From the NCBI GenBank assembly GCA_964016885.1, contig OZ024754.1:3534001-3598000 (forward strand): a stretch of 64,000 bases of DNA. Reading direction: 5' to 3'. Made by a program: the position numbers and the translations under genes. The stretch comes from Eledone cirrhosa. Its lineage: Eukaryota. Below are positions 30,644-30,990 of this stretch, in pieces (position 1 is the first letter of the stretch; every line of letters begins with the position of its first letter). A model generated the notes under the pieces. That model did not search any database. It was not told where the DNA came from and saw only the letters and a list, made by a program, of their open reading frames with translations.

Positions 30644-30698
<55 letters not shown>

Positions 30699-30990
30699 AA
30701 AATGTTCAAGACCCCGACGGCAGAGCTCAAGCCGTTTCGACGGCTATTTCAGTCCAGAAATAGCCGTCGAAACAGCTTGAGCTCTGCCGTCGGGGTCTTG
30801 AACATTTTCCTATTACCCACTCTACTACCCTAAGTATTGAGTACTCTGGTGCGTTATGGTCCACCTGGTTCCTTACCACACCTCCTTTGTTATATATATA
30901 TATGTGTGTGTATGTTATATATATGTATGTGTATATATATAGGGTGTTCCAAAAAAAATGTATACACCCTGTAGTTTAGTTGCTTCACCC
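30583..30990. mobile_element. Two tiny Tc1/mariner-like TIR remnants in direct repeat (also at 28327-28437)
   Basis: tacagggtgtcc...accctctgta at 30583 and tatagggtgttcc...acaccctgta at 30938, both followed by gtttagttgcttc. Confidence 0.45.
30694..30892 (+). mobile_element. HH-A family element with ~120-bp fold-back (30694-30813) carrying the 3' half of a hammerhead on both strands
   Basis: ...gaccccgacggcagagctcaagccgtttc-gacggctatttc agtcca gaaatagccgtc-GAAACaGC-ttgagctct-GCCGTC-ggggtc...; flanked by (TA)n. Confidence 0.8.

Follow-up and report, generated by a model that had tools for sequence, protein, structure and literature searches.

A hammerhead motif recurs in this stretch of the Eledone cirrhosa genome with one of its halves missing, which raises the question of whether the copies form a half-ribozyme family of their own or belong to something larger. 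Within the window (the whole stretch of DNA analysed, 64,000 nucleotides long) the motif lies at all eight places listed by the initial annotation (22149, 23097, 30694, 39475, 41459, 47974, 48195 and 48428), and each copy carries all or most of GAAAC, stem III, GUC and GGGGT, that is, the 3′ half of a hammerhead only. As that annotation also described, CUGANGA is present in none of the eight, and in no copy are both core halves of a type I hammerhead found together. Its reading of these copies as a distinct half-ribozyme family is rejected here because long copies carry the complete ribozyme with a UUGANAA core. The half-hammerheads are almost certainly stubs of a Penelope-like element (PLE), not a separate family.

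Layout of the half-hammerhead copies

The copy at 30694 and the other copies in the window are laid out as follows:

30651..30696, unstranded: (TA)n target, left side of the 30694 copy; the right side runs from 30891
30697..30750, − strand: short (inverted) arm of the 30694 copy, from +7 of the putative RNA start to priming site 2, then (TA)n
30751..30890, + strand: long arm of the 30694 copy, from the putative RNA start (A+1) to priming site 1, then (TA)n
30751..30755, + strand: AGTCC, the observed modal 5′ breakpoint of the family and candidate capped start
30760..30796, + strand: 3′ half hammerhead (stem II 3′ strand, GAAA at 30769, stem III, GUC, stem I 3′ strand)
30805..30812, + strand: priming site 2, TTTTCC/TA, where 48 of 49 short arms end
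30811..30890, + strand: PLE "tail" (~80 nt) between both priming sites, running into the 5′ UTR and ORF in full-length copies
22144..22302, + strand: subfamily B copy; inverted arm 22144–22198, 3 untemplated nt, long arm from 22202 through the tail
23097..23236, − strand: copy with non-mirroring arms; long arm from GAAA (stem III break), short arm from stem I
39475..39574, + strand: subfamily B copy; sense arm from ~+2 to site 2, then an inverted tail-only arm, the two arms not overlapping
41461..41586, + strand: single-armed copy with no inverted arm; starts at ~+14, with the stem I/tail variant common to the CTGAGAA-core subfamily
47974..48625, − strand: three two-armed units separated by (TA)n; the long arm begins with G followed by A+1

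All copies lie within or adjoin (TA)n. The arms of the 30694 copy pair over 54 bp round a 6-nt centre (fold −97 kcal/mol, z −20); its stem III loop, GAGCTC, carries one G>A change at 30774, and the predicted cut falls after 30791 (GUC). An inverted copy is present at 30694 and in the units at 47975, as had been noted, but its centre is the palindrome itself and not the stem II hairpin proposed earlier: in long copies the 5′ strand of the true stem II is found ~40–50 nt further upstream, and none of the eight copies in the window retains it. Only the 30694 copy and the 47975 units are centred at the palindrome, the copies at 22149, 23097, 39475 and 41459 being laid out otherwise; in the first of these the long arm begins at the exact first base after the cut site (22202). 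The units at 47974, 48195 and 48428 are identical over 198 nt, likely reflecting a local duplication or an assembly repeat, and were therefore counted as one event. A direct repeat of ~50 nt (30580–30635 and 30935–30990) flanks the 30694 insertion and its TA runs. An Rfam scan of the window returned no hammerhead and nothing at gathering score among the best 150 of 296 matches, which were miRNA-type models on repeats.

The window also holds related ends that belong to other families. A second PLE-end family (22012–22140 and 33810–34002) has a canonical minimal hammerhead (CUGAUGA) and the same two-arm-plus-tail layout; it has the word GTATTGAG in its tail in common with the U3-A8 family described below and gave 6,340 exact anchor matches. 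Its arms break at the start of stem I, with a preceding G in six of 11 short arms and a C in both of two long copies, numbers too small to serve as a replication. One truncated copy of this family recurs many times with the same upstream flank (L411–L415, L419, L424 and L425) and is thus likely carried inside another repeat. A third family (57980–58205 and 40555–40625) has a CUGAGGA/CUGAAGA core and is two-armed in (TA)n, its centre lying a few bases before the core. Two long ORFs occupy the + strand at 59118–63998, the second of which (947 aa, open at the window end) shows apurinic-endonuclease and RT-like LINE motifs by eye.

The parent element and its complete ribozyme

A 26-nt anchor from the tail gave 7,476 exact matches genome-wide (3.0 Gb; control, 0), a lower bound on the number of copies, and the parent was traced by walking upstream from the longer ones. 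Upstream of the motif these hold a 3′ UTR of ~870 nt and an ORF with reverse transcriptase (RT) and C-terminal GIY-YIG-type motifs, and downstream the tail continues into the beginning of the same ORF; at locus L309 a whole unit of ~3.1 kb lies between two cores. RT and C-terminal GIY-YIG endonuclease belong to a single ORF, pieces of which were found in L111, L112, L309 and L310, and the ORF copies read are frameshifted. Homologs of these pieces are 35–53% identical, and the C-terminal part is 33% identical to P0006 over the endonuclease region. Pfam scans of six protein pieces returned no family, so the domain names rest on motifs (LRWR, SDKTG, YRDDG and CNCPDRSTC, a CxCx5C linker) and on the published alignment. 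The ORF listing of the window contains no PLE ORF, the parent having been found elsewhere in the genome.

The Hydra clade of C-terminal EN+ PLEs is defined by RW(R/K), DKT, a CxCx5C linker and (TA)n targets (Craig et al. 2021, PMC8557442). The present ORF has the RWK-type motif, the change of DKG to DKT and the CxCx5C linker; as described for that clade (PMC8557442), it is a single RT-GIY-YIG ORF whose copies show (TA)n targeting, partial tandems, 5′-truncated inverted copies and a one-sided tail. As far as motifs and layout can place it, the parent matches the published definition of a Hydra clade PLE.

In long copies the motif reads, in order, ACCCC, UUGANAA, G, the 5′ strand of stem II, an insert of 35–40 nt, the 3′ strand of stem II, GAAAC, stem III, GUC and GGGGU, and a whole-hammerhead pattern gave 2,057 matches genome-wide (control, 0). 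Full-length copies show the three helices round the core, G10.1-C11.1, GAAA and NUH of a type I hammerhead. Among 83 distinct full motifs in the loci examined, the core is U3-A8 in 68, C3-A8 in 11, another combination in four and C3-G8 in none, with all four bases occurring at N7. The U3-A8 pair is a natural covariant in the Cercyon PLEs of Schistosoma (Cervera and de la Pena 2014, PMC4209133), which weakens the word canonical and not the word hammerhead. In a set of 35 copies drawn from the subfamilies, pairing holds in 91% of cells, and at three positions of stem II both partners of a pair have changed, mainly between the related subfamilies A and B, so that few events are involved; a three-way fold is predicted in three of four copies (z −2.2 to −2.8). 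The predicted ribozyme of long copies is a complete type I hammerhead with a compensated U3-A8 core and a long covarying stem II.

The initial annotation had expected CUGANGA in full-length members and named its absence there as grounds for rejecting its reading. That motif is indeed literally absent (0 of 83), yet this is due to the compensated core and not to a lost half. The proposed master copy, gacccc-CTGANGA-gacggcta, was not found: CTGANGA-GACRGCT has 1,446 matches, and the 20 of these loci that were read belong to an unrelated repeat. This high-copy repeat (L091–L110), which contains CTGACGACAGACGGCT and is not part of the PLE family, accounts for the majority of the 100 matches that were listed. 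A looser search for CTGANGA 8–38 nt from the core gave 43 matches with no common upstream sequence, which we read as chance neighbours. Searches with CUGANGA miss U3-A8 families, and truncated copies mimic "half ribozymes". The 11 full ribozymes with a C3-A8 mismatch form one subfamily (CUGAGAA core; L282, L288–L290 and L292), which has spread nonetheless; its ribozyme may be impaired, or its core may belong in a different register that lacks position 7.

Footprints at arm ends and junctions

Breakpoints were read in the first 90 of 100 listed tail matches, all in the first 57 Mb of contig 1; 12 subfamily B copies were set aside, leaving 78 A-type copies, and coordinates count from the A of TTAGTC, which lies 18 nt upstream of GAAA. 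Long arms were measured in 67 of the 78, with 44 breaking at −2 to +6 (15 at 0), five at −10 to −3, four further upstream and 14 beyond +6; the other 11 either have deletions or break within stem I or beyond it. An inverted arm is found in 49 of the 78, and 35 of these end at −2 to +6. Breakpoints are thus strongly non-random and lie within stem II, as had been predicted: a window of 9 nt holds 79 of the 116 arm ends that were measured. Subfamily B copies break at the same position by eye, in a search whose pattern required the site and which thus gives no count. At their outer end, 48 of 49 short arms finish at TTTTCC/TA (site 2) and do not run through the tail. Junction spacers range from 7-nt overlaps to 22-nt inserts, and both arms of a copy nearly always belong to the same subfamily variant, while variants differ among copies.

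This geometry bears directly on the mechanism first proposed, in which a single cDNA stalls at the stem II hairpin, folds back and makes the inverted arm. The clustering of breaks in stem II agrees with it, and the loop that it needs would fit in 10 of the 49 two-armed copies, and in the 30694 copy, where the short arm ends at least 3 nt inside the long arm. A fold-back cannot, however, copy sequence that its own strand lacks, and it needs room for a loop; 19 of the 49 inverted arms reach further 5′ than the main arm and 20 meet it at the same point to within +2, so both groups contradict a snap-back. The short arm ends at a priming site of its own in 48 of 49 copies, the arms of the 39475 copy do not overlap at all, and the 30694 junction recurs with the arm roles swapped in L135. 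The enzyme would, moreover, already have passed stem III and lower stem II before it stopped, and predicted folds place the stop in the middle of a helix in subfamily A but in a bulge of unpaired bases in B, which leaves no common structural barrier. Arm geometry largely refutes the snap-back, and we regard it as very unlikely. The outer ends, fixed at two positions, correspond to the pair of internal RT starts demonstrated in vitro for PAc (Poseidon, Anolis), so that two cDNAs lying head to head are the simplest reading, and the two-armed copies are very probably two joined cDNAs.

The inner ends carry a further mark. In 20 of the 25 arms that end exactly at 0, a G precedes A+1, and the figure is 16 of 20 for arms without a detected overlapping partner arm (p 2.5e-5 against 1/3), a count in which the Gs of L173, L193, L204 and L208 could derive from undetected partner fragments and L123, L199 and L230 have one junction type and may not be independent. 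Arms breaking at +1 to +6 have a preceding G in 13 of 46, and none of 83 long copies has a G before A+1, 75 of them reading TT/AGT or TC/AGT. The start position is TYAGT in the 3′ strand of stem II, the same in all subfamilies whether paired or not. We take TYAGT to be initiator-like (Inr consensus) and assume that such an initiator is used in this animal; no match to the consensus of the downstream promoter element was seen by eye at +28. Penelope has an internal promoter with Inr/DPE in its pseudo-LTR (pLTR; PMC2377424), and an untemplated G at full-length 5′ ends has been ascribed to cap copying for L1 and SVA (PMC3287187). A capped transcription start at the A of TYAGT inside stem II is likely. 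The start, the cap and the cleavage are all read from genomic footprints.

Cleavage was approached through 134 very short palindromes, of which the first 90 rows, or 88 distinct loci, were analysed; 42 of these have an untemplated spacer. Their 84 arm ends begin at the first base after GUC in 22 cases, at the second in 14, on the C in one and one base earlier in eight, a pile-up with a naive Poisson p of ~2e-12 under a search pattern that limits arm length. The 22149 copy belongs to this cut-site class, which makes up ~3–4 of 78 copies by eye in the unselected sample. Arms starting at GGGGU suggest, with fair probability, cleavage by the ribozyme in vivo, with the 3′ product, which bears the priming sites, sometimes serving as a template. 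This runs against the result in Anolis, where RNA-seq gave no ends at the cut site and ribozyme cleavage was dispensable in vitro (Frangieh et al., PMC11167929).

Arm ends also join other sequences. A further ribozyme half lies downstream in 13 of 30 loci chosen because they contain the start of the ORF, and 12 of these 13 chimeras take off at −3 to +2, joined to ORF-side sequence 92–458 nt past the tail; the take-off is fixed and the landing variable. Head-to-tail searches (10 and 12 matches) gave 20 independent junctions: four stop at GUC with no microhomology, 13 have a landing point further downstream, and the other three are ambiguous. One of the four, L314, holds the 3′ UTR and a full ribozyme ending exactly at GUC, followed by TAA (untemplated), G and AGTCC from A+1, a single clean case of the junction that transfer of a strong-stop cDNA to a 3′ end cut by the ribozyme would leave. 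The other three have short upstream pieces only. In a second subfamily, a jump onto GUC is seen in two of 10 independent junctions, one with microhomology and neither with a full upstream ribozyme. Homologous transfer through the 41 nt common to both RNA ends would be seamless and leave no footprint, so transfers onto the 3′ end are uncountable. Small arrays of 47–54 nt units, each restarting at A+1 (with a G in L451/L452), occur at L451/L452 (G000:C1632) and L448/L449 and possibly reflect repeated re-copying of one RNA 5′ end.

A proposed linear capped template and known systems

The best explanation, which we hold to be probable, is that the stubs are end copies of a Hydra-clade PLE and that two-armed stubs are two cDNAs run off a capped RNA 5′ end and joined. 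The proposed cycle would start from the ~3.1 kb unit seen in the genome, in which the RT/GIY-YIG ORF is followed by the 3′ UTR, the full hammerhead and the 80-nt tail that continues into the ORF. A polymerase II promoter would set the beginning of the RNA at the A of TYAGT, within stem II. The 3′ end of this RNA would hold the whole ribozyme and be cut at GUC, so that both ends share 41 nt, while the 5′ end, with only the 3′ half of a hammerhead, presumably cannot cut itself. Copying would begin internally, ~60 and 140 nt from the 5′ end, as the footprints indicate and as occurs in vitro for another PLE, with the two cDNAs primed from both ends of a cut (TA)n site. The enzyme would then run to the cap, copy it as an extra G and stop (a strong stop), and most often the two cDNAs would be end-joined into stubs. 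Sometimes a cDNA would jump from the 5′ end to another RNA end and continue, in part as seen in the junctions above; by landing on the common 41 nt of a 3′ end that has been cut, the cDNA would become a full-length copy that has its pLTR. A minority of templates would be the 3′ cleavage product, giving arms that start with GGGGU.

Whether strand transfer is the normal replication route is close to evenly balanced, tilting slightly against. More tentatively still, PLEs could have a retrovirus-like cycle of strong stop and strand transfer without tRNA or LTRs. In the present family transcription would then start inside the element's own ribozyme, and the 41 nt would act as the transfer repeat that rebuilds the pLTR; one and the same sequence would be an inactive half where the RNA is capped and a working ribozyme at its 3′ end.

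Three other readings accept some of these footprints. Two cDNAs may be joined while the stop is an RNA-processing end or a block by a bound protein, with an untemplated C added; short upstream pieces of some head-to-tail junctions do stop again near A+1, as a re-usable block would give. We nevertheless consider this unlikely, since the edge is sharp, decays only to the 3′ side and is followed by jumps to unrelated places, ~2,000 copies read through the stop, and the stop coincides with TYAGT in all subfamilies with a G specific to that position. It is rather improbable, too, that the half-ribozyme at the 5′ end serves as a substrate for the enzyme strand of the 3′ end (I/II), whether in trans or over a long distance, in a cleavage that would free a 41-nt capped piece. 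L318, L319 and L450 do hold pieces from ~A+1 to exactly GUC, joined again to A+1, and arms starting with GGGGU are enriched; the latter are, however, explained if the full 3′ ribozyme simply cuts in cis on RNAs that extend through it into the tail, and similar junctions land elsewhere in 13 of 20 cases. In two of four folded copies of an RNA starting at the stop, moreover, GAAA is predicted to be hidden in an alternative hairpin. Such cleavage could only be an addition to run-off and joining.

The third reading, that the stubs amplify as a unit in the manner of a non-autonomous hairpin SINE or a retrozyme, finds some favour in the 30694 copy and L002, which have the same junction and arm-specific change and, in unrelated flanks, show 97% identity across element and TA runs together, so that here a stub may have been copied in its entirety; a few junction types recur. 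The spread of junction spacers, the match of subfamily variant between the arms of one copy but not among copies, and outer ends that are the two priming sites of a coding element all speak against it as a general account, and we give it hardly any credence. Animal non-LTR retrozymes are tandem monomers, each with a whole ribozyme (bioRxiv 10.64898/2026.07.22.740005; PMC11722881). The present copies are likewise short hammerhead-bearing PLE-related repeats; unlike retrozymes, they are stubs without the catalytic half and trace to a coding parent.

Run-off from a capped 5′ end followed by joining touches several points that earlier studies describe as unsettled. Schostak et al. state that no obvious mechanism of pLTR regeneration was known (PMC2377424), Craig et al. 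that the function of PLE ribozymes is unclear (PMC8557442), and Frangieh et al. left the steps after internal priming unvalidated (PMC11167929). Thousands of stubs preserve, at single-base resolution, where the RNA likely begins, the two priming sites, the position of the cut and the jumps that leave from the 5′ end, and if transcription does start inside the ribozyme, the rebuilding of end repeats by PLEs becomes testable.

PLE stubs, tails, inverted arms and the U3-A8 core are already known parts; new is their arrangement, in which transcription likely starts within the ribozyme and genomic copies bear the marks of run-off and of jumps. Compared with the Hydra clade as described (PMC8557442), the tail is longer (~80 nt against 30–40) and so is the unit (~3.1 kb against generally <3 kb). 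The ribozyme listed for Hydra-1_Obim has a CUGAAGA core and a short stem II, whereas the present one has U3-A8 and a stem II of ~60 nt, and those motifs of the present family that were searched for were not found in the same supplement (PMC8557442); judging by sequence, the present family is not Hydra-1_Obim. With the PLE hammerheads of Cervera and de la Pena (PMC4209133) it has in common a type I ribozyme in the pLTR, U3-A8, G10.1-C11.1, a palindromic loop 3 and mostly single truncated copies, but here stem III has its full 5 bp and stem II is long and contains the putative start site. That study proposes a circular template for tandems, whereas run-off and jumping on a linear, capped template are what the present footprints suggest.

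A close biochemical counterpart is PAc, whose tail is delimited by two internal RT starts and which extends both target strands (Frangieh et al. 2024, PMC11167929), as they appear to be here at similarly AT-rich targets. The RNA 5′ end was not mapped in that study and the term "template switch" is absent from its text; it reports no RNA ends at the cut site, whereas a minority of genomic arms start there in the present family. In the open-access literature, no paper linking PLEs with strong stop or strand transfer was found.

In retroviruses and LTR retrotransposons, minus-strand strong-stop DNA is made near the 5′ end and the first transfer passes through a short terminal repeat. The model proposed here would resemble this in its priming near the 5′ end, run-off at the cap and transfer through a short terminal repeat. 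It would differ in that the primer is target DNA and not a tRNA, the 3′ end is made by a ribozyme and not by polyadenylation, and neither integrase nor LTRs are involved, so that the element would be like a retrovirus in this part of its cycle and is not a member of that group.
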